Source: Jimgerdemannia flammicorona (lineage: Eukaryota). Taken from it: DNA of 36,529 nt. Of this stretch, positions 2,231 through 33,559 are shown one piece after another. How positions within the stretch are numbered: the stretch's first letter is position 1; every line of letters starts with the position of its first letter. The position numbers and the translations under genes were made by a program. The notes beneath the pieces are model-generated. The model was not told the DNA's origin. It searched no databases and saw only the letters and a list, made by a program, of their open reading frames with translations. The stretch spans positions 1 through 36,529 of the forward strand of contig RBNJ01000214.1 in NCBI GenBank assembly GCA_003990765.1, read 5' to 3'.

Positions 2231-2250
2231 GTCATGTCAATTTTAAAATC

Positions 2251-3471: not shown

Positions 3472-3593
3472 TAAGTGTATAGGTCTTGCACAGGTGTGTA
3501 GGTCTTATACAGGTATATAGATCTTACACAGGTGTGTAGGTCTTATACAGGTATATAGATCTTGCACAGATGTGTAGGTCTTGTACAGATATA
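3472..3593. repeat. 19-bp tandem repeat (~6 copies, alternating two variants) in U3 of LTR A
   Basis: Units caggtgtgtaggtcttata / caggtatatagatcttaca start at 3472, 3491, 3510, 3529, 3548 and 3567. Confidence 0.9.
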
Positions 3594-3709
3594 CCTTATC
3601 TGATAGTCTGGCTATTTATACAGCTTTTCATAGCAATGGTTGCTGGTTGCTATATATTTATGTCATCTGGCTAAGTTATAATTTGGGTGGTACATTCTGA
3701 TTTGTCACA

Positions 3710-8085: not shown

Positions 8086-8089
8086 AACT

Positions 8090-8623
8090 TTAGACAATAC
8101 TTTCTATAGATTTTTTGGAGAAAAGATAATAGAAACATAGTGATTAATAAGTAATTAGAAAAGTGTACTGGGCAGGATGACTTTAGTGTATTTGACTAAC
8201 AGTATATAAAGAGGAGCTATGGCTTGAGAGAAAGTCTGTTGAGCTCTCATTCAGATAGACATAAGATTGGTAATAATGAAAGGCAAGGTACTGATGGACA
8301 GAGAACTAGAAGAGTGAGCTTTACTGAAAAGGTCAAGACTGAAGGTTAGTTGATAGGCTTAAATAGCTAACTGCAGAAAGATATGAAGAAGGTAAGGGCT
8401 ACAGGGCCTAGAGAGATAGCTCAGAGTAGTAGTAGTAGCAGAACTAAGAGAGTATATCAGAAAAAAAACTTCAGTTTATATTTACTAGTTTGTATTTATA
8501 GCTATTCAGATTCATATTATTTAATATAGTTTAAGTTTACAGCTATTTAGTTTGTATTACTATATATTTCTATCTATGTACTTACTATTTAATTTATGTA
8601 GCTATATCTTCAAAAAAAAAAAA
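8090..8623 (+). mobile_element. possible 3' fragment of a LINE with poly(A) tail
   Basis: Purine-rich, degraded coding-like segment (Trp-rich, YKEELWLERK), T-rich 3' region and A12 at 8612-8623. It truncates element B. No TSD confirmed. Confidence 0.35.
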
Positions 8624-8700
8624 CAAATCTATTAGCAACTATTAGTTAGTATCTATAGTTATTCAAGTTTATATTATGAAATTATAGTTCATATATTATG

Positions 8701-10095
8701 CTTTCTCTCTATATTCTTAGTAATTTAGTATAGAAATTTAAGGCTTAGTTCAAAACTGATAAGCATGGCTATCTAGATAAGAAAAATAATAAACAAATAA
8801 TATTTATTAACAGAATGGATCTGTGACTTAACTATTCTGATTTCCTAAATAATATTCTTAATATAATCAATAAAATCCAGATATTTATTACTATATAGTC
8901 AAGATGGAAAAAAATATAAATTATAGCCAATAAAGGATTATTTTATATAAGTGAAACAGGAATAATGCCATTACTACCTCCAGCTTATAATGAAGAGTTC
9001 TCTGATATTAGAGAATGAGTCTTGATAAAACAAAAAGCTGCTATTAGTACCAAACAAAATACCAAGTACCAAAAGTAATAGTAACTTCTAAAGAAAGCCA
9101 AACAGACTAACAAAGTTAACAAAATACTTTAATAAATTGATATCTCCCTTAGATGAGCTTAGTACTCTAAATGAGTCAATTTAATCCAGATTGGATTCAG
9201 ATTGGATTCAGATTGAATCCCATCTAGATCAACCATTGTTTTGATTTTCAAATTAAATAATTTAATGTTTATATCAATAACTCAATGAATAATTATCCAA
9301 TTTTAATAATCTTAGTGTCATTTGCAAGCCCTTAATAAGGCCTTTCTAATGATACCAAGAATATTAAAATCAAATTAGGTATTGCTGAGCTATTAAGAAA
9401 AATGTTCTTTTGAAGAAATTTTCAAAATTGATAAGTCAAATAATTTCCAAAATTAGCAAGTCAGACATTTTGCTTGATAACTCAGCAATGTATGATCCAA
9501 TTTCAATGTTCTTGATTTTATTAGAAAGGCCTTATTAAGGGCTTTCAAATGATACCAAGATAATCAAAAATTGGATGATTATTCATCAAGTTATTGATAT
9601 AAACATTTAATTGTTTAATTTGGAAATCAAAACAATAGTTGATTTAAATTGCTCTGAATGGAATTTGAATCTCATCTAAGTTGATCCCATTGGAGTTAAT
9701 TCAGATAGAATTTGAATCTGATCCAGATCAACTCATTTGGAGTACTAGATGAGCTCAAGATGTAGTTTCTGGACATAACTCAAAGTCAATAAACTTAACC
9801 AGAATATACTCTGAATTGTATAAATGTGCCACCAATGTTACCTCTAAGAACACTATTATAGAAAATCATCTATTTAGTAAAAATTGTAACATAATAATAA
9901 ATTCAGTACAACAAGACTGAGAAAGAACAAAAAATAGTAATCACCCTATTTGATCAAAATAGCACCACCTTATCTTACTAAGAGAAGAAGGCCAAAAGTG
10001 AAACAATGTAGTCAAAGAAATATATCAGATTTATGATATAACTTCTCACCTAATACTAAATCAGATCCACTATCTATAAGGAGGAAATAAATGAG
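8701..10095 (+). pseudogene. unidentified degraded reading frame split by the MITE
   Basis: A single frame is maintained on both sides of the MITE after removing one TSD (e.g. GLFYISETGIMPLLPPAYNEEFSD; 54 stop-free codons from 9756). Stops are compatible with C>T decay. Confidence 0.4.
9160..9747. mobile_element. hAT-type MITE with long inverted arms
   Basis: TIR tagtactctaaatgagt / actcatttggagtacta, perfect 8-bp TSD GATGAGCT (9152-9159, 9748-9755), internal ~250-bp inverted arms. A younger copy starts at 36373. Confidence 0.92.
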
Positions 10096-10588
10096 ATTTA
10101 ACTTAAATATAAAAAGATGAGATATATATATTTACTATTCAAAATATATCTGTAATAAATCTGTAAACTATACTATAAACACTACTATACTATAAATACT
10201 ACAAATAATAAATACCACAAATACTATATATAAAAATCTCAACTTATATTAATAAAGATTTGGTTTTAATAATAATCTATAAACTCTTATATTAAATATA
10301 ATTTATTATTAAATATATACTTCTAATGTTACTATATACTTCTTAAATAAAAACTAGTCACAATTGCAAGTAATGCTAAGTTTATACAACTGTATTTTCA
10401 GTCTATATACTTTGTTATTTAGTCTAACTATATGTTTACAAATTAAATATATATTTAAAATATTTCTTCTATAATACAATCTATTGTAACGGTGACCCCA
10501 GAATGATGACATCAGCACAGGAGACAGCCTTTCCTTGCAAGCCACCAGATCGAAGCACAAGAAGATCATACAGTATACAAGATGAGCA

Positions 10589-11330
10589 ATGATGACCAAC
10601 TGTGAGTCATTGTGACTACAGCACAAGCATCCTGAAGAATATAAAAGAAGGATCAAGGAACCGCAGTAGCAGCAACCAACAAGGATCACCATTGCCACCA
10701 AATGCCTTCAAATATGGCAGGAGTACGAAATAGGAAACCTCCTCTGCTGGGAGTTCCCAGAAGCCAGCACCCAAGAGCTACAAGATGCCACCCCCATGGA
10801 CCTACGTGAAACAAGGACAGCTAAGAAGATCCATCAGATCTTCAGGCATGCACCATAGTCATCCCCAACTTGGAGTATGTTAGAGTCTCAGACTTCAGAG
10901 ACCTGTCATCCCGCCGTATCAATGCACTAGAAGCCAGAGTAGCTACAGAAGTCCAGTCCACCATCACCCTCAACAGCGAAGAAGTAGAAGACTTCTGGCA
11001 CCCTATCCTCCAGGACAACCCAGACCAATTCCTGCAAGGATTGATCTCAGTATTCCAAGGCCCAAGCATCCGGGTTAGATCTCCCCAAGACTCCACATTT
11101 GTTCCCTATTTTGTGGAAGAGAACTTCATAGACTGGAGAGCTCCAGATCTCCTTGTTCCCGATTTTCCCGCCACTGCCAAACGTGATGACATCTTCGGTG
11201 ATGACGTCATCCCGCGTGACATCGACATACGCGAAGCACGCGAAAATGATGAATTCGCGGATCTCATCTCCTTCAGTGATGAGATGATGATGATGATGAA
11301 GCCCCCATGGTCCTGAACTTTCTGCTCTAA
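10589..11330 (+). pseudogene. U3-encoded ORF of unknown function, 5' LTR copy
   Basis: Contains ORF 10870-11316. Its private lesions (stop + 1-bp deletion ~10856-10861, frameshift in the GAT run) differ from those in the 3' copy. Confidence 0.65.
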
Positions 11331-11347
11331 GTTCTTTGTTACACTGA

Positions 11348-11474
11348 ATAATGCCAGCACCGGTATTCTCATGTAACACCAGATAATGCCAGCACTGGTA
11401 TTCTGAGGTGATGCGAAATCATTCCAGCACCGGCATTTTGATGTGATACTAAATAATGCCAGCCCTGGAACTCA
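11348..11474 (+). repeat. 35-bp tandem repeat x4 with dyad core, upstream of the LTR TATA box (second set 18343-18469)
   Basis: Units start at 11348, 11383, 11418 and 11453. The core AATGCCAG-CA-C(C/T)GG(T/C)ATT is an imperfect palindrome. Confidence 0.85.
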
Positions 11475-11777
11475 GTAGTTTTAGTTATTGGAATTTATAT
11501 TTAGCTTTATATCTTAGCAACCATTGAATTATATTTTGTATAAATACCCCTCTTATTTCCTCTGAAATAAAGTCAGTTCTGGTTCACTTACATACACTTC
11601 CTTGCAAGCAATCTAAGAGATAACAAGACAGTTAAAGATAAGAAGTTTGAGGACTATAAGACCTTGGGAAGGCACTCCAATAAGAACTTGCTTATAACAA
11701 CTTAAGTTAGTCTAAGAGATACACCTTGAAGAGAATCTGGCATATTTGAAGGACTCAGCGACCACTATGTGACAACT

Positions 11778-11795
11778 TGGTGCCCATTGGCTGGT
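11778..11795 (+). promoter_or_regulatory. primer-binding site of element D (tRNA identity unresolved)
   Basis: TGGTGCCCATTGGCTGGT lies 3 nt after the LTR. An identical sequence follows the 5' LTR of element C (20823). Confidence 0.75.
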
Positions 11796-11894
11796 GATTC
11801 AAGACGAATCCCTCACTTTCAAGCTGAAAAATGAACAACCCCCACAACAACTACCCTGACTACAAGAGTCACCCCTGCAAGAATTCAAGACAAG

Positions 11895-14800
11895 ATGGAA
11901 ATGCATCCCCCCACATTCTATGGATATACTACTGAAGAGTCAATCCTGACCTTCATTGAAGACTTTGAACAATTCGCCACCATACGAGCCCTTGGTGTGG
12001 ATGCTCAATTGGCCCTTCTACCAGTCAGCCTCAGAGGACCTGCCAGAGACAAGATCAATGCAGCCACCATTGCTGATGCTGGTGCAGCCAAACTTGTCAA
12101 CATGAAGACCTTCCTCAGAACAACATATTATACTGAAGAGATCAAGCAAGCTCTCAAGGATCAACTCAATACTATCTGCCAGGGACTTAGTGAAGATCCC
12201 AACTCATTCTATACCCGAATTTGCCACCAGATTATCTTGGCTGGCTATAATGACCACCTCAAGGAACAAATAGCGGATTCAACCTTCCTCAAAGGAGTTC
12301 ACCCTGAAATTGCCCTAGCAATCCGGTCTACCCCAGCTGCACTGACCCTTGATCAGAAAGTGGTCTTTGCACAGAGATATTGGACTACCAGACACTATGC
12401 CGAACACTCAATGGAGAAAATAACTGGCATCAAGATGGAGCCATCAAAGCCAACTAGTATCCTACCTGCTACAGTTGTGAACAGACAATCAACCACACCT
12501 ACCCCCAAGACAGCCAAAGCTGACCCAGTGGAAGAACTCGCCAAGCAGTTCGCCGAGATGACTGCACACCTTGGTGATGTTGTTAGAGAAGTCCGAAGCG
12601 CCAATAGGAGACCAGTACAAAGATTTGCAGCTGCTACAGAAGAATGCAATAACATCACATGCTTCAGATGTGGAGAAGAAGGCCACTATGCAAAGAATTG
12701 CATGACTGAAACGAGATGCAAAGCCCAACCAAGCAATGCTAGCAGAACCAGAGAACAAACCAATGCAGTAGTCATTGAGGAGATTGGTGACACTGATGAT
12801 GAAGAATACTACGAGGAGCTTGAATTCTACCCTGCTACTGAAGGTACCAGAACCCAGTCCAAGTCTTATGACAAGAAGAGCAACAGCAAGCCAGTTGGAA
12901 GACCAAAGAAGACCCCAGCTGTCACCATTCAAAGCAAGACCCAACCCAAGGAGATTGATCAAGACATAGAGTTAGATGAAGCTGCCCGCCAAATCATTGA
13001 AGGCACTACTCCAGTCTCAGGAGAAAGCGAAAGCAAGAAGGAACAGAAGCTGTGCAAGACCAAGATCCACCAGTATGACATCTACAAGGACCTCAAGGAG
13101 CAGAAGGTCAATGCCACTTTTGGACAGCTAGCTGAAGTCCCTGCCTTCAGACAGCAGTTGAGAGTAGGACTTGCAACTACTGCCAAGAATCAAGAGTACA
13201 AGATTGTGGAAGCTCACAATGTACAGGAAGAATCCGAGAACTCAGGTGAAGAATCTGAAGACCAGCGCAAGACATCAGCCTATACCCCCTGCCAGATCAA
13301 AGACTGTATCTTTGATGCCATCATTGATACTGGTGCTGGAGGATGCCTCATGAGCAAGAAGGCAATTGACCGCCTAGGTTGGGATATTGAAGAGTCCACC
13401 AAGATGGTCTATGTCACAGCAGACGGTACACGAGCTACCCCCCTTGGCAAAATCCGAGAAGTCCCCATCAAGATAGGAGGAGCTACCATTCCAGTAGACG
13501 TGATTGTTACAAGTGCCACCAACTATGACATCCTCATTGGCAACCAATGGCTTCACAAGGCCAAGGCCATCATTGATCTCAATGCCCAGAAGATGCAGAT
13601 CAACTACAGAGGAAGAAAGGTACAAGTCTCTATCAATGTCCACAAAGGAGTTCTACCAGACATGGAGGAAGGAGATGAAGAAGACACAGAGGTGTTCATG
13701 CACTCGGTGAACAAGAACAAGAGCAAGACACCCAAGCTCACAGATGAGCAGTGGTACAACAAGATCATCGATAGCTATGCCCCTCAAGGAAGATGCCCCC
13801 ATGGTACTAGAATGTACTGCTCCGAACACCTGAATGACTGCTAGTCCTGTATCAGTGAAGTCAGGAAAATCCGCCAACAGAAACATGAGCAAAAAGCCGC
13901 CGAAGCAAAAAGGAAAGCCAAAGAAGATGACCAGCCCCCAGAGCTTCAAGCTGACAGCGACGATGAGGAGGAACAAGAACCAGACATCACTCTCAAGGTC
14001 AAGAAGTTTCACCCCGAAGCCAAGATCCCAGAATACAAGACTGAAGGAGCCATAGGAATGGACCTTACCAGCATTCAAGATGCTACCCTCGAGCCACAGA
14101 CCACCACTCTACTTGGCACCAGAATTGGAGTCAAGTTACTAGAAAACCATGCCGGAATCATCAAGACCAGAAGCAGTCTAGCCAAAAGCAAAATCTCAGT
14201 TGAAGGAGGAGTAATTGACCCTGATTACACTGGCGAGATCTTTCTCATAGTCAGAAATCACAACCACACCACCCCCTTCGAAGTCAAGAAGCATGACAGG
14301 ATCAGCCAGATGCTGATCCACGAAATCAAGAAGCCCAAGATCATAGAAGCCATCGAACTCATCAAGACCAAGAGAGGAGAACAAGGCTTTGGATCTACTG
14401 GAAGAGGAGCCTATGCCACCACCAAGATTACCAAACTTGAGCACAAGAAAGACAAGGATCAGAACAAGCACACATATACCATTGGAGAAAACTTTCCCCT
14501 AGAGGAACAACTCCTCAAGATTCTGCACCAGAATGAAGGAGTACTTGCTACAGACTTTAGGAATATCCACAACCAAGAACCCAAGTACTACCACGAAGTT
14601 GATACCAGTGATACCAAGCCCATCTACCAGAAAGCCAGACCCATACCACCTGCCTACAGAGAGTGGCTGCGAGCTGAACTCAAGGAAATAGAGGAAGCCA
14701 GAATCATTAAGCAAGCTATCAGCCCCTGGGCCTCACCCATTGTCCTAGCCCCAAAGAAAGGAAGCAAGCCTGGAGAGTTTGCACCAAGACTCTGCATTGA

Positions 14801-15923
14801 CTACAGGAAGCTCAATGCCATTACCAAGAAGGATAGGCAGCCCTTGCTGAATATTCAAGAAATCCTTACCACTCTTGGAAGTGAAGCCAAATACTACACC
14901 ACCTTGGATCTGTTCTCAGGCTTTCATCAGATTGGTCTCACTCAAGATGCCAGTGAGAAATCAGCCTTCATTACACCTGATGCCACCTATATCTACCTGT
15001 GAATGCCATTTGGAATGTGCAATGCCCCAGCAAGTTTCCAGCGAATGATAAACAGAGTCTTCAGCAACGAGATTGGAAAATAGCTCTTTGTCTATGTTGA
15101 TGATATGATCATCTTCAGCAACACTGCACGGGAACATATCAATCACATACAGCTAGCCCTCAAGAGGCTCAAGGAGCATGGCCTCTACATCAAGCCCAAG
15201 AAATGCAAGTTTGCAGCTCAAGAAATCGCCTACCTAGGACACCTCATCAATCAGACCGGAATCCACACAGACCCCATGAAGATTGAGGCTGTTGCAGCCT
15301 ACCTGAGACCCAGAACAACCACAGAAGTCCACGCCTTCCTTGGACTAGCCAGCTACTACAGAAGATTCATCAAAGGATACTCTAATATTGCAGCACCTAT
15401 TTACGAGCTACTGAAGAAGGAGACCAAATTCGAATGGACCAAGGAGCGCCAAGAGACCTTCAATGAACTCAAGACCAGGTTGACTCAAGCACCTATCCTC
15501 AGAAGACCAGATTGGAACCTAGAATTCATCCTGCAGACAGATGTAAGCGCCATAGGACTTGGAGCAGTCCTAGCTCAGAAGAAAGATGGACATGAATATG
15601 TCATCTCCTATGCAAGCCAAGGTACCTACGGAGCAGAACAAAACTACGAGTCATGCAAGCTTGAATGCTTAGCAGTAGTTTGGGCAGTAGACAAGTTCCA
15701 CTACTACCTAGCTAGGAAACACTTCACCATTCAAACAGACCACTCTGCTCTTGCCTGGCTATTCCACACTCTGAACCCTAAAGGAATATATGCCAGGTGG
15801 ATCTACAGGCTGCAAGAGTATGACTGTACTGTCAAGCACCGCTCAGGAAAGACCAACACCAATGCCAATGCACTCTCAAGGACACCCCGAAATACTCCCA
15901 TCAAGACTATTCAACATGAATAA
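11895..15923 (+). pseudogene. gag-pol: single-frame gag-protease-dUTPase-RT-RNase H polyprotein with three premature stops
   Basis: ORFs 11895, 14058 and 15105 are in one frame, broken by TAG 13842, TGA 15000 and TAG 15081. Motifs: CFRCGEEGHYAKNC, IDTGA, RLCIDYRKLN, YVDD, TDVSAIGLGAVL, TDHSAL. The original start is probably ATG 11831 (+1 insertion in a C run). Confidence 0.95.
13992..14402 (+). CDS. dut: dUTPase domain between protease and RT (uninterrupted)
   Basis: All five motifs present: GMDL, RSSLA, GVIDPDYTGEI, DRISQM, RGEQGFGSTG. Confidence 0.93.
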
Positions 15924-17163
15924 GGAGCTATACTATGGATTAATCAGCTACCTTGGGCAGTGGAAGATGCCCAACCACCTCGAACCCTGGACAATCACCA
16001 TCATCAACCGGACTTGGAAACAGTTTGAATTAGGCAGCACTACACTCAGAAAAGGAGGAAAGCTAGTAATACCCGAACACAAGAAGTATCAAGTAATGAA
16101 GGAAGTACACGAGCAAGGACACTTAGGAGGAACCAACACATACGACAAGGCAAGAAGAACTATGTGGTGGCCCAAGATGGAAGAAGACCTGTGCCAATTT
16201 GTCAAAGGGTGTGACAAGTGCCAAAAACAGAAACAAGATCAGCAAGACCAGGCACCCGGGTCATCAAGAATTGAGCCTATCCCCTTCCACCACATCGCAA
16301 TAGATATCATTGGACCACTACCAGTAACACTATCAGGAAACCGCTATATTATAGTTATTGTAGACCTCTTCACCAAATGGATAGAGGCAGGAGCATTACA
16401 AGAAGCCAATGCCCTCTCTATAGCCGACTTCCTGCACCAAGAAATCATCTGCCACTACAAGACACCAAAGCAAATCACAACAGACTGTGGAACGGAATTT
16501 GTCAATGGATTCCACGAGATAATGTATCAGAAATACAAGATCCAGCACATCAAGACCACCGCGTACCACCCTCAAGGAAATGGACAGACAGAAAGAACCA
16601 ACAAGACCCTCAAGAACATCCTAGTGAAGATCTCAGAGACATATGAGAATTGGGATAACTATCTCCCAACCACCCTCTCTGTCCTACGAGACATACAGTC
16701 ACAGAGCACACATTTTACCCCAAGAGAGCTGCTCTTCGGAGAAGAAGATTCTGATGGAACCTCAGCCACAAATCTAGACCTAACTTGGAGACAGGTTGAT
16801 GCAGAAATCCAGAGACTACATCAAATCAGGAAGAAGGCTGAAGATTACATCACTAAGTCACAAGTGCTGACAAGGAAGAATGCAGAAAAGAATCACAAGG
16901 CCCTAGAACCCATCCGAATTGGAGAAAAGATTCTACTGTATTGAAATATGGTAGAAGCCTCTTGGTCACGAAAACTGGAGCCCAAATGGGAAGGACCCTT
17001 CTATATGCAAGATATCAAGGGAACTACCTTCTGGCTTAGAAAAATCTCAGGGACCATACTGCCTACCACAGTACATAGGAACAGACTCAAGAAGTACCAC
17101 GAACCTATACAAGAGAAGCAAAACGTGATGATCGCCCGTGAGGTTCTAGTCCGCGAATCGTAA
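15916..17163 (+). pseudogene. integrase (separate reading frame; one internal TGA at 16942)
   Basis: HHCC (HEQGHLG...CDKCQ), DDE core (IDIIGP, TDCGTEF, NGQTER) and GPF module (WEGPF). Confidence 0.93.
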
Positions 17164-17498
17164 CAGCATGTCCCGTGACCAGCAGGCTATCTGTCTGGAC
17201 CATTCTCTAAGGGATATGGCACTGGCAACTACTCATCCGTGAGACTTTCGATGTCAGAGGAGTTCAAACCGTCAACTGATTGGTCAAGATCAGAATCAGG
17301 CCCTTGCTCTATATGAAGGGAGCGACCCTTCACCATCACACCAAAATACAAAGGGAAGATGCCAGCCCATAAACACCACTTTTCGACCCCTTGCCAGAGG
17401 TTATGGGATCAGCAAATTTTTCAGGACTGGACCAATGAATAAGGATGCTCAGGAAGATTCTTATTCAAGAGGAAGATATAACGGTGACCCCAGAATGA
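17151..17498 (+). pseudogene. putative accessory reading frame between integrase and U3 (crosses the PPT)
   Basis: Frame RIVTACPVTSRLSVWTIL*GIWHWQLLIRETFDVRGVQTVN*LVKIRIRPLLYMKG...IRMLRKILIQEEDITVTPE has pol-like codon usage. Its four stops are all TAA/TGA, revertible to CAA/CGA. Confidence 0.45.
17467..17476 (+). promoter_or_regulatory. polypurine tract of element D
   Basis: AAGAGGAAGA immediately before the 3' LTR. Confidence 0.85.
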
Positions 17499-18769
17499 TG
17501 ACATCAGCACAGGAGACAGCCTTTCCTTGCAAGCCACCAGATCGAAGCACAAGAAGATCATACGGCATACAAGATGAGCAATGATGACCAACTGTGAGTC
17601 ATTGTGACCACAGCACAAGCATCCTGAAGAATATAAAAGAAGGATCAAGGAACCGTAGTAGTAGCAACCAACAAGGATCATCATTGCCACCGAATGCCTC
17701 CAAATGTGGCTGGAGTATGAAATAGGAAACCTCCTCTACCGGGAGTTCCCAGAAGCCAGCACCCAAGAGCTACAAGATGCCACCCCCATGGACCTACATG
17801 AAACAAGGACAGCTAAGAAGATCCATCAGATCTTCAGGCATGCACCATGGTCGATCCCCAACTTAGAGTATGTTAGAGTCTCAGACTTCAGAGACCTGTC
17901 ATCCCGCCATATCAATGCACTAGAAGCCAGGGTAGCTACAGAAGCCCAGTCCACCATCACTCAACAGCGAAGAAGTAGAAGACTTCTGGCACCCTATCCT
18001 CCAGGACAACCCAGACCAATTCCTGCAAGGATTGATCTCAGTATTCCAAGGCCCAAGCATCCGGGTTAGATCTCCCCAAGACCCCACATTTGTTCCCTAT
18101 TTTGTGGAAGAGAACCTCATAGACTGGAGAGCTCCAGATCTCCTTGTTCCTGATTTTCCTGCCACTGCTGAACGTGATGACGTCATCGGCGATGACGTCA
18201 TCCCGCGTGACATCGACATACGCGAAGCACGCGAAAACGATGAATTCGCAGATCTCATCTCCTTCAGTGATGATGATGATGATGATGATGATGAAGCCCC
18301 CATGGTCCTGAACTTTCTGCTCTAAGTTCTTTGTTACACTGAATAATGCCAGCACCGGTATTCTCATGTAATACCAGATAATGCCAGCACTGGTATTCTG
18401 AGGTAATGCGAAATCATTCCAGCACCGGCATTTTGATGTGACACTAAATAATGCCAGCCCTGGAACTCAGTAGTTTTAGTTATTGGAATTTATATTTAGC
18501 TTTATATCTTAGCAACCATTGAATTATATTTTGTATAAATACCCCTCTTATTTCCTCTGAAATAAAGTCAGTTCTGGTTCACTTACACACACTTCCTTGC
18601 AAGCAATCTAAGAGATAACAAGACAGTTAAAGATAAGAAGTTTGAGGACTATAAGACCTTGGGAAGGCACTCCAATAAGAACTTGCTTATAACAACTTGA
18701 GTTAGTCTAAGAGATATACCTTGAAGAGAATCTGGCATATTTGAAGGACTCAGTGACCACTACGTGACA
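17477..18769 (+). repeat. 3' LTR of element D
   Basis: TATAAC (TG>TA)...GTGACA, direct repeat of 10485-11774. Confidence 0.97.
17581..18325 (+). pseudogene. U3-encoded ORF of unknown function, 3' LTR copy (~250 aa consensus, acidic C-terminus)
   Basis: ORFs 17704-18069 and 18032-18325 join when a 2-bp deletion (~17960) is repaired from the 5' copy. Confidence 0.65.
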
Positions 18770-19619
18770 CTATATACTTATTTACTAAATATGAATAAAA
18801 AGAATATAAATTCAATCTACTTACTAAATTCTTTCTTACTGAATCATATTTCTCAAATAAGAGTTGTATGTGTACTGTATGAACAATTAAATCTATAGAT
18901 ATAACATTGAACTGCTCAGTCTGCATAGTGACAGCTATTCCTATCTCACAATTATGAGAGATCATATTTTTAGTACTAGAATGCTCAATATCTACTATAT
19001 TATATCACTCCAAGTATATAAGTCAATGAACTTAGCAATCTTACTTGATTTTGAAGAGAAGGTAAACTTGAGCAAAAGAATATTTGTCTATATCTTGTCT
19101 TATCTCAAACTGCTTGTCTATAAGATTATACAATACTACTCAGTCATATTATAGACTTCTATGGAACTGTTACTTATAGCAAATAAGTTGATAAAATATA
19201 GCTAAATCTAATTTTATATCTACATATAAAAGATTCATGAACTCCAATTAATAAAGTGGTAAAGATATTAATCTACAGAGATTAAGAAGAGATATTAGAA
19301 ATATCACAAAAAAAGTTTACCAGCTAACTTAGTATAAATAACTTACTATTGGATTTGAAAGTTTAGAAAGATTTTTTCTATTTACTTAATAATGATATCT
19401 ATTTCCAAATATAAACTGGAGATTATGGAAAAACATCTGAGTAGTAAGTTCAAGATTACATAGTCTAAACAATTTTAAAACTTCATTAATATAGAGTGTA
19501 CCTTCAGAGATACTAGTACTCAGGTTCAGTTATTAGTAAGCTTAAGATATCTGTAAGCTTACTATGTAATTGTAATATGATCAAGCTTGTCCTTAAGTAC
19601 TATTCAGCACTATACTAAC

Positions 19620-20436
19620 TTGATAACTTAGGAAAGAGAATCACATTTGTTTGTTCATCAATATAGTATCTTAACTTTCATACAATGTTAATATTAGTGT
19701 TATCTCTATATTAGTATTATCTGATATATCAAATATTCAAGTTGACTCAGAAATATGCTATAGAGAGTAGTGTTTTTCAAAGTTCAGTAAACTTGGTAAG
19801 ATCTCTATAAACTGCTCTTTTGGTTTATTGAATTGAGATAATAGCATATTTTAATCTGTAAATATTTTTTCAGTAATGAGGTATAGAAGTACTACTCAAT
19901 GAAAATTATGAGGTATTTGACAATACTAAGTGATTTGAAAATCCTTCTCATATATGAGAGTAATATTTTTTAAAAGATTTTTTTTTTTTATTAAAGAGTT
20001 CACAAATAGTTCATGAACTCACTGTAATATATATAATACTTATATACATCAGTTGTTAATATTCAGCTGTAGTTATTTAACTAAGATTTGAAATTCCAGT
20101 AGAGAATTTTTTAAGCTTAGAATATTAAGAAACAAGTTGAATACAAAGTTTAGCTCTAGTTTACCATATATATATCAAATGAACTCTTGATAAGATTAAG
20201 AGTTAGATTGATTTTTTACTTAATAAAGTATATTAGGCATAATTATTAAATAAATATTTATAAGAGATAGTTTCCATAGTATATTCTAGAGTTTGGTTAA
20301 CAGATGATGTAATTGTTAGTAAAAAAATATTTATTTAAAAATAAGCAAAATTAATATATATAGTTAGTCCCACAATCTATGCTCTTGAAGACTCTTTTCA
20401 GCTATTTTATATTTGTCTTTTGAATGATAAATCTGT
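19620..20436 (-). pseudogene. Plavaka-type transposase, C-terminal part (degraded)
   Basis: KLKKFSTGISNLS*ITTAEY*QLM (~20115-20050) and NFEKHYSL*HISEST*IFDISDNTN (~19785-19715) resemble Plavaka motifs (F..Gi..l.q.T..E; NfpK.H...H). Confidence 0.65.
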
Positions 20437-20819
20437 TGTGATGTATGATATGAAATAGAAATAGAAAATAGATATTTAATTATAGTACCTGAATCCAATT
20501 TCCAATTTAGTATAGTCCTTTACTATGGATACTGCATCTAAAACATTATCAGTGAAACTCTTGTTACTTTCATGAATTTCAAATAGGATTTCACATGAGA
20601 TTCTACCTGAGAATTTTACATGAAAAGACTTAATACTTAGCTATATATTTAGTAGCAGAATAAGCACACAAATCTGTATAAATAACTCAGTATTTTAGAG
20701 TAAATAAACCTCAGTCAGATTGAGTCAGTTCAATTCCAAAAATAAGTCTTCTTTATATATCCTTCTTCTCCATTTCAAAATCTTTCCAACTCAACAAGTT
20801 CTATGTCTGCTACATTATA
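20437..20819 (+). repeat. 5' LTR of element C
   Basis: TGTGATG...CATTATA, direct repeat of 28668-29048. TGTATAAAT and AATAAA present. Confidence 0.92.
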
Positions 20820-21776
20820 ACTTGGTGCCCATTGGCTGGTAATTCAAGATGAATCCTCACTTTTAAGCTAAAAAATAAACAACTGCCAGACTGCCATACA
20901 GACTGTCATATTGTACATGGTATTTATCTGCACCATCTACTGTTAATTACTTGTTCCAGTAGTCAGCCTCATTTCTGTGAATCTGTAATAGTTCTAGTTT
21001 CTTTAAGAGAAAGTGGCTAAATCTGGAAGTTCTAGTTGGCCTAATGTAGTTTGAAGAGATACTTAAAGGTTCAAGTGTTCTTGAAGGATTTCTAGAAGAA
21101 AATATTCTGAGCTTTATTCAGACAGAGAACAAAGATATTTATACATAATCTGAAAAGAAAGATCCAGAAGGATCTTGGAAAGAAAGAGAAATGCCAAGAA
21201 ATAGGTTCTTGGCAAAGCTGACTAATACTATTCTATAATATTCCAAAAGGTTCTATAACTAGCTATAATAATATACTTGGCACCAAGGAAAGACAAGAAT
21301 ATTCTAGTAGTGTCTGGGTGCTGAGAGAAGATTTCTAAGCAAGTAGAAGATAGTGGAATATAGTAGAATATTCAAGAAATGACAAGAAAAGACTAACTAA
21401 AAGATGCGAAAATATACTAAGACTAAATATGACTGTGAAATTGTTACATCTCTCTCTCCTTAAGAACCAATGTTCTCATTGAGTTTTTAGGTAATACAAG
21501 ACTAGATATACTTAACCAAAATTTCTCAAACTTGTATCAGTACATTGGTGGGAATTGGCCATCCTCATATAGAGTAGAGGGCCTATTACTAGACTAATCA
21601 ACTGAGAGAGATTCAAACCCAGCTAGTAGCTTCATTTTGGTAGGCTTCTTATTCATTAAATGTTCTGCTAGTTCCAGGGTCCCAAAGTAAACTTCCAATA
21701 TATAAAGTACTGGTCTTTGCTATAGGTTGTCAATAATCCAAGAAAGTCACTACAGAGATTGGGCAATGTATTTTAC

Positions 21777-21926
21777 CTCGAAGTCTTGAACTAGATCTTG
21801 AGAGTTCTTAAGGTTGACCAGTGGTTCTCAGGTAGCATCATATTCAGGATAACCCATCCACTTGACTAGGTATTTGGGACAGTGGTAGTGGATTCGTTTG
21901 TCAAGAATTTTCTCAGCTTTATACTC
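21777..21926 (-). pseudogene. chromodomain
   Basis: EYKAEKILDKRIHYHCPKYLVKWMGYPEYDAT*EPLVNLKNSQDLVQDFE. Confidence 0.92.
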
Positions 21927-24900
21927 GATATAGTCTTCAATAATCACAGGGGCAGAAGGCTTAGAAATTCAACCAGGGTAGAGCAGTAACTGGTTCTAGA
22001 TCTTAAGGTGTAATATATGAAAGATCAGGTGTACTCTTATGATTTCAGGTAGCTTGAGGTGGTAGGAGGATACAGAGACTTGTTCAGTGATCTTGAAAGA
22101 TCTAATATACTTGGGTTGGAACTTGTTTGAAGGGTGGTTGACTTGAGATTATATCTTAAGGTTCTCAGTAGACAGTAGGACTTAGTCTCTAATAGTATAA
22201 GTAACATCATAGTGTTTCTTATCAGCATACTTGGCTTGATACTATTGAGCCTTCTGGAGGTTCATGGTAGCATTCTTGAAAGAGAATAGACTTACAGGGG
22301 TCTCAGGATCTTGACTGTGGAGTAATCAGAAAGAGAAAAGACTAGTAGATGATTTGACAGCATTGTTGTATACAAACTCCATATAAGTCAGATAGTGGTC
22401 CTAATTATCTTGCTCATAAGAAATATAGTTTCTAAGCATTTGTTCTAGGGTTCTGTTCATACACTCAGTTTGTCCATCAGTTTGTGGGTGAAAGGCAGTA
22501 GACATAGCCAATTTGATTCCCAGGGTCTTAAAGAGAGTTTGCCAGAAGTGACTGGTGAACTTGGGGTCATAATTACTGATAATTACTTATGGTAGGCCAT
22601 AGTAATAGAAGATGAACTTAAAGAAGATTCTTGCAATACATATCAAGTATAGTAGCATTGGTAGTGGTTGGTTTAGCAACCATAGTCTTGGTCAGGCAGT
22701 CAATGAATATGATAATAGTATTTGCACCAGATTGAGTTCATGATAGTTGAGTTACAAAGTCCATAGTGATTTGCTCAAATGTCTTGATAGGAATTGGTAG
22801 TGGTTATAGCAAACCAGCAGGTACTTGGTTGGTAGACTTGTTGCACTGACATAGATCACAGCTGGCAACATAGTTCTTGATTTCCTTGACTATGTTTGGC
22901 CAATAGTAGCAATATTGGATGTTCTTGACAGTCTTCTCAATTCCCAGATGATCAGCAAGAGGGGAGTCATGGTGTTCTTATAAAACCTTATAGTGTAGGT
23001 TCATGTTTTCAGATAGGTAGACTTGATCTTGATGATAGATCAGATTGTTCTCAACAATATATATATCCTTGAACTTATTCAAGAAAACTCTAGTAGCAAC
23101 TATATCTTCTTTGTAAGCTTGCTTGATTTGGTCTAGGAATTCTGATGCCAAGGTAATCTGCATGATTGTGGTGAGGTCTGGGCATCTTGATAAGACATCT
23201 GATACTATAAGTATCTTGCCAGGCTTGTAGATAATCATTGAGTTGAAGGTTTGAAGCTTGAGGCTCTACTTGGCTTATAGATACGTATGACAGGGTAGGT
23301 TGGGTGTTGATATACTTGAGAGATTGATGATCAGTAATGACATCAAACTCAACACCTTCTAAATAGTATTGCCAGTGGTCTAGTGCATATATTATTGCCA
23401 GTAGTTCTTTTTCATGAGTAGCTAGCTTTTGTTCAGCTGGGGCTAGCTTGCAGGACTCAAAAGCAATAGGGTGATGTCCTTTGCCATCATCTTGTAATAA
23501 GACTGCTCTAATGGCAAAATTTGATACATTAGTGATAATTATAAATTTTAGGCCTTGATCTGCATTATTCAGAACTGGAGTATGGGTCAGGTAGTTCTTG
23601 AGTTCTTAAAAGGCTTGTTGACAGAAGAGGTCCCAGGTTAGGGTACATAGTGGTCTGAGTGCAGGGCCTTCCTCATGAGGTTAGTCAGTGGCTTGGAATA
23701 TCAGAGAAGTTTCTGACAAAGCAGCAGTAGTAGCCAGCTAGACCAAGGAAGGATCAGAGTTCTGTGAGGTTCAATAGAATGGGCTATTCTTCAATTGCTT
23801 CTATCTTGTGTGGGTCTACTTGAATTCCTTATGCAGAGACAATGTGGCCAAGGTATTTGACTTGTTCTTTGAAGAATTCACACTTCTTGAGCTTAGTATA
23901 GAGCTTGTGTTTTCACAGAATCTCCAAGACTATTTGAATGTATTTGAGATATTCTTCTTTAGTTGTACTAAAGATCAGGATGTCATCAAGATATACCAAC
24001 AGGAAAATAAATAGTTGGTCCTTGAATATCTTGTTCATCAGAGTCTGGAATATGGCAGATGCATTTATGAGACCAAATGCTAAGACCAGGAATTTGTAGA
24101 GTCTAAAGGGGGTCATGAATGCAGTCTTGGAAATGTCTTCTGGTTTGATTTGAATCTAGTGGTATCCTGATATAAGGTCTAACTTGGTGAAGTACTTGGC
24201 ATTCTTGAGAGCATTGAAGATTTGATCAATCAAGGGTAGTAGATAGCAGTTCTTGACAGTAAGTTTGTTGAGTACATGATAGTCTATACACATTCACAGA
24301 GTACTATCCTTCTTCTTGATTAATAAGACTGGTGAGCCATAACGCTATATGGCTCCTCATACAAGTAGTTCTTCTAGTTTCTTCTTGACTGCTTCAATTT
24401 TGAGTGGCAACATACAGTATATATGTTTCTTGGGTGGTATAGCTCCTGGGGTCAGTTCGATTTCATGATCAACTTCTCATATAGATGGTAGACCTGATAG
24501 CTTGTCTGGAAAGACATTCTTGAATTATTCTAGTAGTAACTTAATGCTTTCATTGACTAATAGTCTCTTGTCTTGTTTCTTGGGATAGACCATTATAATA
24601 AAGATATGCATTGCTTTCTTGAGTACTCTCTTGTACTATAGCTAATAGTATTGCAATCTGGGTCTTGCTTGTGGTCTTGTCTGTCTTGATAGTGATATTG
24701 GCTCTATCTTGAAGTAGGGTGACTTCATTCTTGTACCAATCAATATCTGGGTTGTATTTTGTAAGCCAGAGTTTTCCTAATATCAGAGCATGATCTCCTA
24801 GTAGTGCAATCTCAAAGTCTACTTGTTCCCAATATTTCTGGATCTTGATGGGTATTTTGGTGGCAATTGACTCAATGGGGTGCAGAGTACTATCTGCAGT

Positions 24901-25080
24901 GACTATACTATTGTTCTTGAGTACAGGCTTGGTAAGGATCTTGAGGCTTTTGATGAGATTCTGATTGATGAAGTTTCCTGCAGCTCTGCTGTCTATGAGT
25001 ACTTGAACTTCTTTTCCTTTGACTAGGCCTTTGAAAATGATCATATCTTGAGCTCAATTTTCACTAAGACTTGCTGCTTG

Positions 25081-25491
25081 ATCAGTGCTGCCAAAATCTT
25101 TTTAATCTTGTTTAATTTCAGGGAGTTCTTGGACTTCTGTAATCTTGAGTTGACTGGCTTTTTCTAGGATCATTTGTATAACTCAGTCTCCTTTCTTGAC
25201 TATGTAGTCTTGATCCTTCTGATTGATAAGTAGAACTTGAACTTGTCCTCAAAAGTCTGAGTCAATGATACCAGTGCCTATGTCTAAATGATGTTTGATA
25301 CTGAGTTCTGATTATGGTGCAATTCTGGTATAATGTCCTTCAGGACATTGAACTGCAATTCCAGTAGGCACCAGAGTTCAGCCCTTGGCTGGAATAGTGA
25401 CTTGTTTTACTGAGTGTAGGTCAAGACCTATGGCTCCTTCTGTTTAATATTGAGGGGTCTGGGCCTTTAGATGAAGCTTCTTGACCTTGAG
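25081..25491 (-). pseudogene. dut: dUTPase domain between gag and protease in E
   Basis: LKVKKLHLKAQTPQY*TEGAIGLDL...VPTGIAV...RIAP*SELS...GIIDSDF*GQVQVLLIN...KGD*VIQM...FGST (frameshifted). Confidence 0.9.
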
Positions 25492-27022
25492 CTCAGGTTG
25501 ACTGGTAGTGGGATTGACAGATATATCCTTGGACAATATGGTGACTGGTCTTGAGGGTTTGCTGTTCTTCTTAGGACATTTAGTTGCAATATGTCCTGTT
25601 TGGTGACAAAAAAAACAGGCTCTGGATTTCTTTAGATAGTCCTTTTTTTCAGAGTTGAGCTTGGCATTCTTTTTGTTCATAGTGTCTAGGTCTATTAATA
25701 TCAGGCCAACTGTTCTTGGTTGGTTCTTGTGGTGGTTCTTGAAGTGGTTTTTCTTGTGGTGTTCTGGTTCAAAGTAGTTACTAAAGGTGATGACATCAAA
25801 CCTATCAGCAATTCTCATGACTTCATCAAGGTTTTTGGGCTCTTCTAGCTTGACCTTGACTCATGTGTTTCTCTTCAAGCCTCAGACATAGTGGTCTATC
25901 TTTTTATCCTCAGATATTGCTGGTAGCTCAAGTAGGATTGACAGGAATTGTATATTATAGCTTTATATAGACTAAAGTTGCTTGATGTTTGCTAGCTTGT
26001 CTCTAGCTAGTTTGGTGGCATTAGCAGGCTTGAACTGCTTGTGAAGGGCTCTCTTGAAGACTTCCCAGTCTCTGATTTGTATATATGAGTATACAGAGAT
26101 AACTATGATATAATTGTACTAATAGATGACTGTATTTTCTCAGAGAAGTGTGGTAGCAAATTGGACTTGCATGTCATCTTCCATTCTTGTGAGCTTGAAG
26201 TATTGGTCCAACTGAAAGGTCCATGTATCTGTAGATAGTCCTCCTCAATAGCTGTCAAAGGTATCTGGTTGAGTGGCTTGAAACTGACTAGTGCTATAGT
26301 GGAATGTGATATACTTACAGTTTGTGTTTTCTGCTATTCTAGTTATACTTGAAGTTCTTGGATTTGGTGGACCATAGTATTGATCATGTCCTCTATACTG
26401 AGTTGCTGTCCTCCTGCTTCTTCTGTAGCAGAGGGGTCTAGCTGGTAGACTGACTCTTCATAGCTCATTTCGGATTTATGTGACTATTTGTGACTGGTTT
26501 CCAAATTCATATGAGGTTTCTTAATAAGGCAAGATATATTGATACTGCTGCTACCAAGTGTAATGGTTCTAGTTTCTTTAAGAGGAAATGGCTAAATCTG
26601 AGAGTTCTAATTGGCCTAAAGTAGCTTGAAGAGATACTTAAAGGTTCAAGTGATCTTAAAGGATTTCTGGGAGAAAATATTCTGAGCTTTATTTAGGCAG
26701 AGAATAAGGATATTTATATATAATCTGAAAGAAAGATCCAGAAGGATCTTGGAAAGAAAGAGAAATGCCAAGAAATAGGTTCTCAGTAAAGCTGACTAAT
26801 ACTATTCTATAATGTTCCAAAAGGTTCTATGACTAGCTAAGACATGATACTTGGTGCCAAGGAAAGACAAGAATATTCTAGTAGTATCTGGGTACTGAGA
26901 GAAGGTTTCTAAGCAAGTAGAAGGTAGTAGAACATAGTAGAATGTTCAAGAAATGATAAGAAAAGACTAACTAAAAGATGCAAAAATGTACTAAGACTAA
27001 ATATGACTGTAAAATTATTACA

Positions 27023-28550: not shown

Positions 28551-28667
28551 CAATTGCCTGGATATATCATAAATATGTCTATATAGGGGAAACAAATGTA
28601 TAAACATTATAATGTAAGAATTTGAATAGGTATTTTTGTGTCAAAAATAACCTATTCAGGGGGAAGA

Positions 28668-29048
28668 TGTGATGTATGGTATGAAATTGAAATAGGAAAT
28701 AGACATTTGATCATAGTACCTGAATCTAATTTCCAATTTAGTATAGTCCTTTACTGTGGATACTGCATCTAAAACATTATCAGTGAAACTCTTATTACTT
28801 TTATAAATTTTAGATAGGATTTCACATGAGATTCTACCTGAGACTTTTACATGAAAAGACTTAATACTTAGCTACATATTTAGTAGTAGAATTAGCACAA
28901 AATCTGTATAAATAACTCAATATTTTAGAGTAAATAAACCTCAGTCAGATCAAGTCAGTTTAATTCCAAAATAAGTCTTTTTTATATACCCTTTCTCTCT
29001 ATTTCAAAATCCTTCCAACTCACCAAGTTCCACATCTACTATATTATA
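28668..29048 (+). repeat. 3' LTR of element C
   Basis: Direct repeat of 20437-20819, preceded by the PPT and followed by TSD CTGT. Confidence 0.92.
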
Positions 29049-31817: not shown

Positions 31818-31823
31818 TATAAT

Positions 31824-32175: not shown

Positions 32176-32189
32176 ATATAATTCAGGAT

Positions 32190-33493: not shown

Positions 33494-33559
33494 ACAAAAA
33501 AAGAAATTAAATAATCTTTTTTGAAAATTAAATCTTATATTTATCTATTGTTTGCAAGC

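Follow-up and report, generated by a model that had tools for sequence, protein, structure and literature searches.

Results

A decayed Ty3/Gypsy element with long LTRs

The window (the whole stretch of DNA analysed, 36,529 nucleotides in length) contains a degenerate Ty3/Gypsy retrotransposon whose LTRs each measure 1.29 kb. The target-site duplication CTAT is present on both flanks of the element, which comprises the following parts:

10485-11774, + strand: 5' LTR (1290 bp; TG..CA ends; CTAT flank)
11775-11792, + strand: primer-binding-site region, directly 3' of the 5' LTR
11835-17163, + strand: decayed gag-PR-dUTPase-RT-RNase H-integrase region
17164-17466, + strand: spacer between pol and the polypurine tract; no coding signal; holds most of the stop-free run 17243-17584
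17467-17476, + strand: polypurine tract (PPT) AAGAGGAAGA
17477-18769, + strand: 3' LTR (1293 bp; CTAT flank)

The order of its Pfam domains (zf-CCHC, aspartyl protease, dUTPase, RVT_1, Integrase_H2C2, rve) is that of Ty3/Gypsy elements, with E values of 2.1e-27 for dUTPase, 5.7e-18 for Integrase_H2C2 and 3.8e-11 for rve. The gag-pol region is interrupted by in-frame stops at 13842-13844 and 16942-16944, changes frame near 15002-15084 and 15775-15923, and terminates in a TAA at 17161-17163. In the ESM Atlas, the integrase finds matches from mixed phyla, with Basidiomycota the commonest in the top ranks; this is only a lead, and a fungal nature of the element is probable. In four out of four sequencing runs, all analysed in the form of assembled contigs, the end of the 5' LTR is joined to primer-binding-site sequence. 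The summed contig depth is greater over the LTR than over the interior and is unsuited to ranking the parts of the element. The two LTRs differ from each other by 36 transitions and 2 transversions. The flanking DNA is nearly devoid of CpG (observed/expected 0.00-0.08); the RIP indices of the AT-rich flanks are mixed, and the loss of CpG is their striking feature. Rfam and tRNA scans of the whole window returned no match.

Both LTRs carry a broken protein gene within U3

A conserved protein gene is present in each of the two LTRs as a broken copy truncated at its front, and lies entirely within U3. About 220 codons of one frame are recognisable in either copy, and the sites at which this frame is broken differ between the LTRs:

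10679-10855, + strand: U3 gene, 5' LTR, piece 1; followed by an in-frame TAG (10856-10858) and then a 1-base loss
10861-11283, + strand: U3 gene, 5' LTR, piece 2; 141 codons, the longest unbroken piece; followed by a 4-base loss, GAT run
11286-11330, + strand: U3 gene, 5' LTR, final piece; last 14 codons plus stop, in a third frame
17671-17961, + strand: U3 gene, 3' LTR, piece 1; 97 codons, terminated by a 2-base loss (17959/17960)
17960-18325, + strand: U3 gene, 3' LTR, piece 2; 121 codons plus TAA (18323-18325)

Contigs in all four runs have two extra bases behind 17959. The second piece in the 3' LTR (17960-18325) contains the acidic tail and the C-terminal hydrophobic motif of the protein, and positions 11286-11327 of the 5' LTR match the C-terminal 14 residues of the relatives P0001, P0002 and P0009, as identified by tblastn. 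Across 199 codons of the gene, the two LTR copies differ by 10 synonymous and 15 non-synonymous changes, indicating that the two copies decayed independently, and about neutrally, after insertion. The copy in the window is unable to make the protein. Coding scores of its frame range from +0.23 to +0.47 bits per codon, compared with +0.29 to +0.53 for the pol segments, and the off-frames of the same region score -0.35 to -1.31.

A preliminary description of this DNA had proposed that U3, and thus every LTR copy, holds an extra gene whose single frame bears different lesions in the two LTRs. The alignment of both LTRs and the presence of the gene in each of them bear out this view. Two further details proved accurate, namely the end of the frame about 210 bp before the TATA box (208 bases by our measurement, from the gene stop to the TATAAATA box at 18534-18541) and its pol-like codon usage, which is seen in the ORF frame alone. 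In place of the proposed ~250 amino acids, however, the window contains only ~220 homologous codons.

The supposed start of the gene, by contrast, had to be revised. For all five query relatives, tblastn homology starts at 17671 in the 3' LTR and 10679 in the 5' LTR. A gene that crosses the PPT, as previously suggested, is not supported, since the homology begins 194 bases inside the LTR and the gene lies wholly in U3. The region 17478-17664 shows no coding signal (its three frames score -0.43, -0.77 and -0.44), and the two shared stops previously placed near the 5' end of the ORF are located upstream of 17671, in sequence without coding signal. We also considered an intron that would hide these upstream stops, but discarded it, as neither homology nor coding signal is seen before 17671.

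Similar considerations apply to the second coding-like frame that had been assigned to 17151-17498 or beyond. In the spacer (17164-17477), the coding scores are -0.25, -0.09 and 0.00, and Pfam finds no match for the frame 17243-17584 or for 16945-17163. The stop-free run 17243-17584 comprises 113 codons, a length reached in 221 of 5000 first-order Markov simulations. The spacer frame has no coding signal, and the suggested coupling of the U3 gene to a second ORF is not supported. Nor was an extension of the integrase found: pol stops at 17161-17163 and is followed by a 303-base non-coding spacer. Consistent with this result, albeit as weak evidence, none of 884 candidates of 378-2000 aa represents a fused or longer relative at E <= 0.01.

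The U3 gene belongs to a conserved family

The U3 gene has about 15 relatives, which fall into three subgroups and extend down to ~29% identity. Their full-length forms measure 271-342 aa, and the intact ORFs begin with MP..R. Five of 12 candidate relatives were matched at E = 1.8e-66 to 2.0e-35, and a profile search retained 13 of 6234 candidates at E <= 0.01. A search of 1.84 billion representatives gave six proteins at E <= 0.001, one of which (P0011; 2833 aa, 18 stretches, E 4.6e-4) was taken as spurious. The alignment reveals blocks that are conserved across the three subgroups, with in-frame indels in the tail. Among JGI metagenome contigs, one alignment produced 250 pattern matches with no relative among them; an alignment including the distant subgroup identified one relative out of 183, L001, which contains an intact ORF of 291 codons. 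None of the relatives comes from named genome annotations. Within the window, a weak tblastn match of P0008 to 25555-25181 (E 0.010, 23% identity, with stops) and the remaining matches elsewhere (E > 0.1) were taken as chance.

Comparison of the window pieces with L001 over 199 aligned codons gives a pN of 0.379 and a pS of 0.704, with identities of 0.55, 0.68 and 0.42 at codon positions 1, 2 and 3, respectively. In addition, the ORF region is represented, at >= 88% identity, by contigs of four runs from as many studies. Among the 40 of 663 differences listed between the window copy and the family contigs, both fixed differences in the ORF are synonymous third-position changes; for the dUTPase-to-integrase region, 17 of 22 fixed differences in the same set are synonymous. 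The proposal that this is a conserved gene rather than an oddity of a single copy is therefore upheld by ~15 relatives and by the coverage of the ORF region in four runs, and the suggested analysis of dN/dS points to purifying selection relative to L001 (pN 0.38, pS 0.70). As for the integrity of the ORF, it is broken in both LTRs of the window but intact in full-length relatives. As these relatives were predicted by gene callers, ascertainment accounts for part of the openness of their frames; P0005 has a C-terminal frameshift, and internal methionines form the starts of P0003 and P0004.

Taken together, these data make it very probable that the U3 frame is a genuine gene shaped by purifying selection. 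One could instead invoke an open frame that arose by chance in a long LTR, on the grounds that both window copies are broken and devoid of a start codon. However, this explanation, which we consider extremely unlikely, is refuted by relatives with E values down to 1.8e-66, conservation across ~29-85% identity, an identity that peaks at codon position 2 and is lowest at position 3, and pol-like codon usage.

The N-terminal part of the gene was probably lost at a short repeat

The window copy lacks the start codon and ~63 N-terminal codons of its full-length relatives. Its homologous part begins at the following site:

17670-17675, + strand: junction AACAAG, common to both LTRs; family copies diverge on either side

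In several runs, 17670 and 17675 are the sites of loose contig ends. Other copies have, before 17670, a start codon and N-terminal residues matching P0001, and copies that match the window upstream of the junction diverge after 17675. No contig among those analysed joins the upstream U3 of the window type to an intact N-terminus. The lineage of the window copy lost the 5' UTR, the ATG and ~63 codons, most likely because the segment between two AACAAG repeats was deleted during reverse transcription. We infer this deletion from paired loose contig ends, and recombination between two LTR types would leave identical traces. The N-terminal loss is common to both LTRs, and the parent element must therefore already have been devoid of this segment. 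It follows that the parent transposed without an intact gene, so that the gene either is not needed in cis or is provided in trans; by the same token, the gene may contribute little.

Control sequences surround the gene

Several potential control elements are found in the LTRs:

10640-10647, + strand: TATAAAAG box, 5' LTR, in the 5' part of U3
17632-17639, + strand: TATAAAAG box, 3' LTR, 30 bases upstream of the junction; candidate LTR-internal promoter
18342-18480, + strand: about four 35-base tandem repeats showing partial dyad symmetry; located between gene stop and main TATA box
18534-18541, + strand: main LTR TATA box TATAAATA
18561-18566, + strand: AATAAA poly(A) signal, downstream of the gene and 20 bases after the TATA box

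The 10-mer TATAAAAGAA is common to the window and L001, where it is located at 296-305, 72 bases before the ATG; as a 10-base match, it could have arisen by chance between stretches of such size. In a blastn comparison of the window with L001, the upstream regions were not among the similarities reported. The TATA-like box before the gene in both the window and L001 suggests an LTR-internal promoter. The 35-base repeats vary in copy number among family copies (contig joints 18387-18430 and 18362-18332) and are candidate enhancer or binding sites.

Residence in an LTR is seen directly for the window's own family, the surroundings of L001 not being recognisable as LTR or pol-adjacent sequence: a comparison of the region upstream of its ORF with the C-terminus of the window integrase gave no match (best E 0.16, inside the ORF), and neither did a Pfam scan of its ORF and upstream frames. 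We nevertheless think it likely that the gene is native to the LTR rather than recently captured. A capture scenario would hold that the LTR took up a host gene, or one from a different mobile element, that is of no service to the retrotransposon, and that the relatives are host paralogues. It could account for the mosaic structure of the window LTR at 17670-17675, and most relatives lie on small contigs (567-4848 bp) in which the genomic context is not visible. Gene transduction by LTR elements is known, yet transduced genes sit in one or few copies, according to parts of a review (PMC7264820), whereas the ORF region occurs, like the rest of the element, in many variant contigs from four runs. 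The codon usage of the gene equals that of pol, named genome annotations yield no relatives, and L001 has the TATAAAAGAA box at the same position upstream of its ORF, all of which argues against capture and renders it very unlikely.

The product is a soluble acidic protein by prediction

The encoded protein is acidic (pI 4.5-4.9). The highest 19-residue Kyte-Doolittle mean ranges from 0.59 to 1.07 in four relatives, indicating the absence of a membrane segment. The last third carries a net charge of -17 to -21 in the four relatives and contains the conserved hydrophobic tail motifs DLI.F and P.VLNF. The N-terminal 60 residues of P0012 are arginine-rich, with a net charge of +8; members of the third subgroup have not kept this basic patch. 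The product is thus predicted to be a soluble, acidic and partly disordered protein with a net-basic stretch of ~60 N-terminal residues, a helical middle part and an acidic-hydrophobic tail. Charge and hydropathy of the four relatives agree with the earlier view of a protein with an acidic tail that has no transmembrane segment and is not env-like.

Pfam returned no match for four ORF pieces. Its sole match in the family, to ATG5_HBR in two of eight members (best E 0.088), was taken as chance. The family profile produced no match among PDB sequences at E <= 10, and its comparison with the gag-PR region of the window by hhalign (probability 0.05) revealed no relation to gag. In the ESM Atlas, the cluster nearest to P0002 is a 244-aa family with 61 members, which is probably P0002's own family; other matches were < 0.9. 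The structure prediction and Foldseek search suggested previously were carried out, but with a mean pLDDT of 35.9 for five sequences and 47.8 for eight sequences, they permit no verdict on the fold. Using these low-confidence models, Foldseek found no PDB match at E <= 0.001 (best 0.79), and a wide VIA-align search reached a best Z of 3.9, with no match >= 5; because the models are this poor, the fold searches are uninformative on the fold. None of the domain and fold searches (Pfam, PDB profile, Foldseek, VIA-align) linked the protein to DNA binding or transcription.

These features bear on two alternative roles for a conserved gene. On the one hand, it could be expressed from a spliced subgenomic mRNA and act post-transcriptionally, for instance in the export of unspliced RNA in a Rev- or CERV-like manner. 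As the last ORF at the 3' end of the genomic RNA, the gene occupies the place of retroviral env and accessory genes, and P0012 of the close subgroup has an arginine-rich N-terminus. Similarly, the sections on CERV of Cer1 in PMC10309623 describe a 3' ORF that is expressed from a spliced mRNA and needed for the export of genomic RNA. However, inspection by eye of L001 and the loose contig ends revealed no polypyrimidine tract with an acceptor before the ATG, the gene is preceded by a TATA-like box instead, and the arginine-rich patch is not kept in P0013 and P0015. We therefore regard this alternative as unlikely. On the other hand, the product might act on particles or on the host, as a chaperone, an assembly cofactor or an antagonist of RNA silencing or of a restriction factor. 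A conserved, acidic and partly disordered family with tail motifs (DLI.F, P.VLNF) typical of host-docking proteins would fit such a role, as would the strong host pressure on repeats that is apparent from the loss of CpG in the flanks (0.00-0.08). Domain and fold searches, however, detected no similarity to a known antagonist or chaperone. The data do not separate this idea, which we consider quite unlikely, from a regulatory function.

Discussion

A model for an accessory gene in the LTR

The best overall explanation, to which we assign a probability of roughly 60%, is that the gene in the window is a defunct copy, shortened at its front, of a conserved LTR accessory gene that would operate as follows. 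As judged from the window and L001 combined, the intact ORF would be situated wholly in U3, preceded by the TATAAAAG box and followed by the 35-base repeats, the main TATA box and the poly(A) signal. It would be transcribed from its own promoter within the LTR, and its mRNA would end at the LTR poly(A) signal, such that each LTR, including solo LTRs, would constitute a self-contained gene. Its product would be nuclear and would regulate the LTRs of its own family in trans, either activating transcription or counteracting silencing.

The individual parts of this model differ in strength. A dedicated promoter for the U3 gene is conceivable, at somewhat below even odds, given the TATA-like box. 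A role of the product as an activator or anti-silencer is less likely than not and draws on composition only: the last third (charge -17 to -21, DLI.F, P.VLNF) might be an acidic-hydrophobic activation region. Rather doubtful is the complete circuit, in which each LTR would form a complete gene and solo LTRs would supply a nuclear factor that binds the 35-base repeats and activates or de-silences the main promoter family-wide. If true, it would represent a two-promoter feed-forward circuit resembling that of foamy-virus Tas as well as the first gene known to ride inside a retrotransposon LTR, and the supply of the factor in trans by solo LTRs would explain the transposition of the truncated parent.

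Retrotransposon LTRs are treated as non-coding control regions, and their contents are discarded by gene finders and repeat maskers. A conserved protein gene in U3 would be duplicated with each LTR and persist as solo LTRs once the element itself is gone. Since it would survive in this form, hundreds of expressed copies of a factor made by a transposon could be present in one genome. Such a gene would also reveal that complex organisation, including accessory genes and perhaps a further promoter, has arisen among Ty3/Gypsy elements that are not retroviruses. For a host that removes CpG from its repeats, as the flanks show, a function in anti-silencing would be especially interesting. Moreover, the family is without a name, domain or fold, which makes it a clean target for learning what retrotransposons need beyond gag and pol.

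Comparison with known systems

Protein genes inside U3 are otherwise known mainly from complex retroviruses. In HIV/SIV nef and foamy virus bel2, the coding sequence extends into U3, and foamy virus Tas (Bel1) is the product of a 3' accessory gene with an internal promoter that activates the LTR. Unlike the element studied here, these are complex retroviruses of vertebrates; we found no similarity to Tas or nef in sequence or fold, and activation is only hypothesised for the U3 protein. Full-text literature searches did not, within the portions of text they cover, turn up a description of a conserved ORF residing in a retrotransposon LTR; this is weak evidence that none has been published.

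Among retrotransposons, a dUTPase between protease and reverse transcriptase is described, in parts of PMC2864245, for the fungal Ty3/Gypsy elements PosPlaTy3-5 of Postia placenta, Phanerochaete and Tuber Tmt1, and the dUTPase domain of the window element occupies the same position. The 'add. ORF' that a figure legend of this paper mentions without a position may be similar. The additional ORFs (aORFs) of plant elements are, in the relevant passages of PMC7264820, family-specific, conserved in most copies, without an assigned function and often proposed to be regulators; they include env-like sense ORFs and the antisense ORFs of Grande, RIRE2 and Retand. Like these, the U3 ORF is extra to gag-pol and conserved across copies and relatives. 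It differs in its location inside both LTRs, at least 194 bases from the LTR 5' end, and, with regard to the env-like aORFs, in that its product lacks the membrane segments that these possess. Another parallel is CERV of the C. elegans Ty3/Gypsy element Cer1, an accessory, nuclear and regulatory protein that is encoded 3' of pol, has no homologues outside its group and is joined by splicing to upstream exons sharing sequence with gag, according to the sections of PMC10309623 that deal with it. In both cases, an accessory protein of a Gypsy-type element is encoded 3' of pol. The present gene, in contrast, lies inside the LTR and is unrelated to gag (hhalign 0.05), CERV being likened to it by description.

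MMTV sag shares with the gene described here its containment in U3, so that it is present in every LTR. Sag is a membrane glycoprotein, whereas the protein here has no membrane segment; there is also no sequence similarity between the two (the Pfam scan assigns no family), and a mammalian retrovirus stands against a Ty3/Gypsy retrotransposon. The MMTV LTR has two promoters, as stated in a passage of PMC2723071 citing Gunzburg et al. (1993). The U3 described here has a comparable layout, with a TATA-like box, as part of a putative promoter, upstream of the gene and the main TATA box downstream of it.

Results

The window carries, on its plus strand, a Ty3/Gypsy LTR retrotransposon that is flanked on both sides by CTAT and whose internal region codes for a gag bearing a CCHC knuckle, followed by aspartyl protease, dUTPase, reverse transcriptase and integrase (Pfam). 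Its dUTPase domain (13845-14400, E = 2.1e-27, Pfam) lies between protease and reverse transcriptase, an arrangement that excerpts of PMC2864245 likewise describe for fungal Gypsy elements, including one Postia placenta family. The copy is decayed, with in-frame stops at 13842-13844 and 16942-16944, which break pol without changing its frame, and two frame changes; between its LTRs there are 36 transitions and 2 transversions. DNA of this element family is present in soil metagenome runs and in those of an organism coded A, and the nearest Atlas clusters of the integrase are mixed, with Basidiomycota being commonest.

Features of the element and its U3 open reading frame
10485-11774, plus strand: 5' LTR, 1290 bp, TG...CA ends
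10679-10855, TAG, 1-base loss, 10861-11283, 4-base loss in a GAT run, plus strand: U3 ORF in the 5' LTR
17161-17163, plus strand: TAA, end of pol
17467-17476, plus strand: polypurine tract AAGAGGAAGA, abutting the 3' LTR
17477-18769, plus strand: 3' LTR, 1293 bp, TA start, CA end
17632-17639 (10640 in the 5' LTR), plus strand: consensus TATAAAAG box, 30 bases before the junction at 17670-17675
17671-17961, 2-base loss, 17960-18322, stop 18323-18325, plus strand: U3 ORF in the 3' LTR
18534-18541, plus strand: main TATA box, 208 bases after the U3 ORF stop
18561-18566, plus strand: AATAAA, after the main TATA box

U3 of each LTR is traversed by the same reading frame, whose interruptions fall at different sites in the two copies, in line with the complementary lesions noted in the preliminary description; at the frameshift of the 3' LTR, contigs from all four sequencing runs contain two extra bases, as does the 5' LTR. 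The ORF ends close to the distance from the TATA box initially estimated (~210 bp). Using a log-odds score trained on the element's own gag-pol, we obtained +0.23 to +0.47 bits per codon for the ORF frame and -0.35 to -1.31 for its off-frames, compared with +0.29 to +0.53 for pol segments, which bears out its pol-like codon usage. The acidic tail (net charge of the last third, -17 to -21) and the absence of a membrane segment were upheld as well.

With the longest unbroken ORF piece as a query, 5 of 12 candidates proved to be relatives (E = 1.8e-66 to 2.0e-35). Searching 1.84 billion representatives with a profile returned six proteins at E <= 0.001, a profile word search matched 13 of 6234 candidates, and a metagenome scan identified one DNA locus, the contig L001. 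The sixth profile match, a protein of 2833 aa with 18 short matches, was taken as spurious. Judged by these similarities, the U3 frame is a gene with relatives, which form a family of ~15 members in three subgroups (72-85%, 40-58% and ~29-32% identity to the close forms), all from short contigs (567-4848 bp) in JGI or ENA.

Full-length relatives
P0012, 271 aa
L001, 291 aa
P0013, 325 aa
P0009, 342 aa

All four begin with MP..R. Some members are incomplete: P0005 has a C-terminal frameshift, and the frames of P0003 and P0004 open at internal methionines. The blocks W.EYEI, AKK.HQ.F.H.P, NP.LQDNPDQ.LQ and F.GPPI are kept across subgroups, as are DLI.F and P.VLNF within the acidic tail, which otherwise varies by in-frame indels. 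Searches of Pfam and PDB sequences, and Foldseek and VIA-align comparisons that used low-confidence models, returned no family, solved relative or fold for the protein. As a less probable alternative to a gene proper to the element, it may be a captured host gene.

Codon-wise alignment of the two 3'-LTR ORF pieces, each taken separately, to the L001 ORF (199 codons) gave 44-49% amino-acid identity, pN of 0.379 and pS of 0.704, which is close to saturation. The fractions of identical bases at codon positions 1, 2 and 3 were 0.55, 0.68 and 0.42, a pattern that is indicative of a protein under constraint. The window differs from family contigs at 663 places; among the 40 of these listed, both differences inside the ORF (2/2) are synonymous third-position changes, 17 of the 22 between dUTPase and integrase are synonymous, and five lie in the 208-base non-coding stretch that follows the stop. 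Within this copy, by contrast, the ORFs of the two LTRs differ by 10 synonymous and 15 non-synonymous substitutions, roughly as expected if decay is neutral and proceeds by transitions only. The gene is under constraint in the family but not in the window copy.

Homology to the five relatives begins only at 17671 (10679 in the 5' LTR), corresponding to residues 38 and 64 of P0001 and P0009, respectively, and the N-termini of these relatives have no match anywhere in the window (tblastn). Contigs matching the ORF diverge from the window before 17670 (eight from run X1, one from X3, three from X6), and their divergent sequence, which has a start codon at its end, reads like the N-terminus of P0001. 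Conversely, contigs matching the upstream sequence diverge after 17675 (six from X1, five from X2, three from X6), and both types have in common the six bases of the junction, AACAAG. We interpret this junction as the product of a deletion in which a pair of short direct repeats recombined out the 5' UTR, the ATG and ~63 codons and the frame was shifted, although an exchange between two LTR types would give the same picture. Since the junction is common to both LTRs, it must already have been present in the parent RNA. The window copy of the U3 gene is dead.

The stop-free run of 113 codons at 17243-17584, previously regarded as a second coding-like frame, has neither a coding signal (log-odds score) nor a Pfam match, and its length was reached in 221 of 5000 Markov simulations; among longer proteins, none of 884 candidates is a fused pol form. 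The gene therefore neither crosses the polypurine tract nor extends integrase. The two stops described as shared by both LTRs lie upstream of the junction, in a stretch that lacks coding signal (17478-17664 scores -0.43, -0.77 and -0.44 in the three frames). Taken together, the original observation is largely confirmed and its interpretation partly supported.

The minus strand at 20437-28902 carries another Gypsy-type element (RT_RNaseH, RVP_2, zf-CCHC), which is older and rearranged and has repeat pairs at 20984-21448/26559-27022 and 20437-20671/28668-28902; its LTRs gave only chance-level matches to the U3 protein family (tblastn). Local repeats of 152-235 bases (families D5 and D7; 27024-27881), spaced 253 and 453 bases apart, adjoin it. 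The CpG observed/expected ratio is 0.00-0.08 in the AT-rich flanks and older repeats (1-10500, 19000-36000) and 0.21-0.44 in the young element, a scarcity suggesting that repeats in the host decay heavily through methylation-driven C-to-T change; family-wide differences are likewise mostly transitions. GC skew is very strong at 34000-36000 (+0.45 to +0.53; 38% GC), where the single long frame matches no Pfam entry.

Discussion

Since transcription from the main start site begins only downstream of U3, a gene in U3 must be expressed either by splicing of the genomic RNA or from a dedicated promoter. A candidate for such a promoter is the TATAAAAG box, whose 10-mer TATAAAAGAA recurs at positions 296-305 of L001, where 72 bases separate it from the start codon of the intact ORF. 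A match of so few bases may be fortuitous, and blastn reported no upstream similarity between the window and L001; by eye, the sequence of other copies after 17675 resembles the L001 5' UTR. If this is a genuine promoter box, every LTR would constitute a full gene, comprising promoter, ORF and the LTR's own AATAAA. After the stop of the gene, L001 (1371-1383) and the window (18335-18347) share a 13-base string without mismatch (E 1.5), which could represent a conserved LTR signal or a coincidence.

The relatives have a pI of 4.5-4.9, a net basic N-terminal stretch of 60 residues (+8 in P0012) and a middle part predicted, at low confidence, to be helical. Between the gene and the main TATA box lie approximately four tandem 35-base repeats with partial dyad symmetry (18342-18480), whose number varies, with some family copies skipping or repeating units (joints 18387-18430 and 18362-18332). 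By composition alone, the acidic-hydrophobic tail and the adjoining repeated sites would fit a trans-acting activator or anti-silencing factor. Production from a spliced mRNA could instead suit an RNA factor similar to Rev or CERV (excerpts of PMC10309623), and a particle or host-defence factor is a further candidate.

Additional ORFs are known from LTR retrotransposons, where the portions of PMC7264820 and PMC10309623 available to us place them in the internal region, and supplementary tables of PMC2864245 record fungal elements that have an "add. ORF". In the literature, surveyed mostly at the title and abstract level, we came across no description of a conserved ORF lying within the LTR of a retrotransposon. 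The U3-borne gene described here belongs to a protein family without a name, and its dead window copy is a pointer to a conserved gene carried in LTRs, one that merits study at the RNA and functional levels. Genes inside U3 are known from retroviruses, and the known parallel is MMTV, which carries sag in U3 and, according to an excerpt of PMC2723071, two promoters in its LTR, whereas here we infer the promoter.
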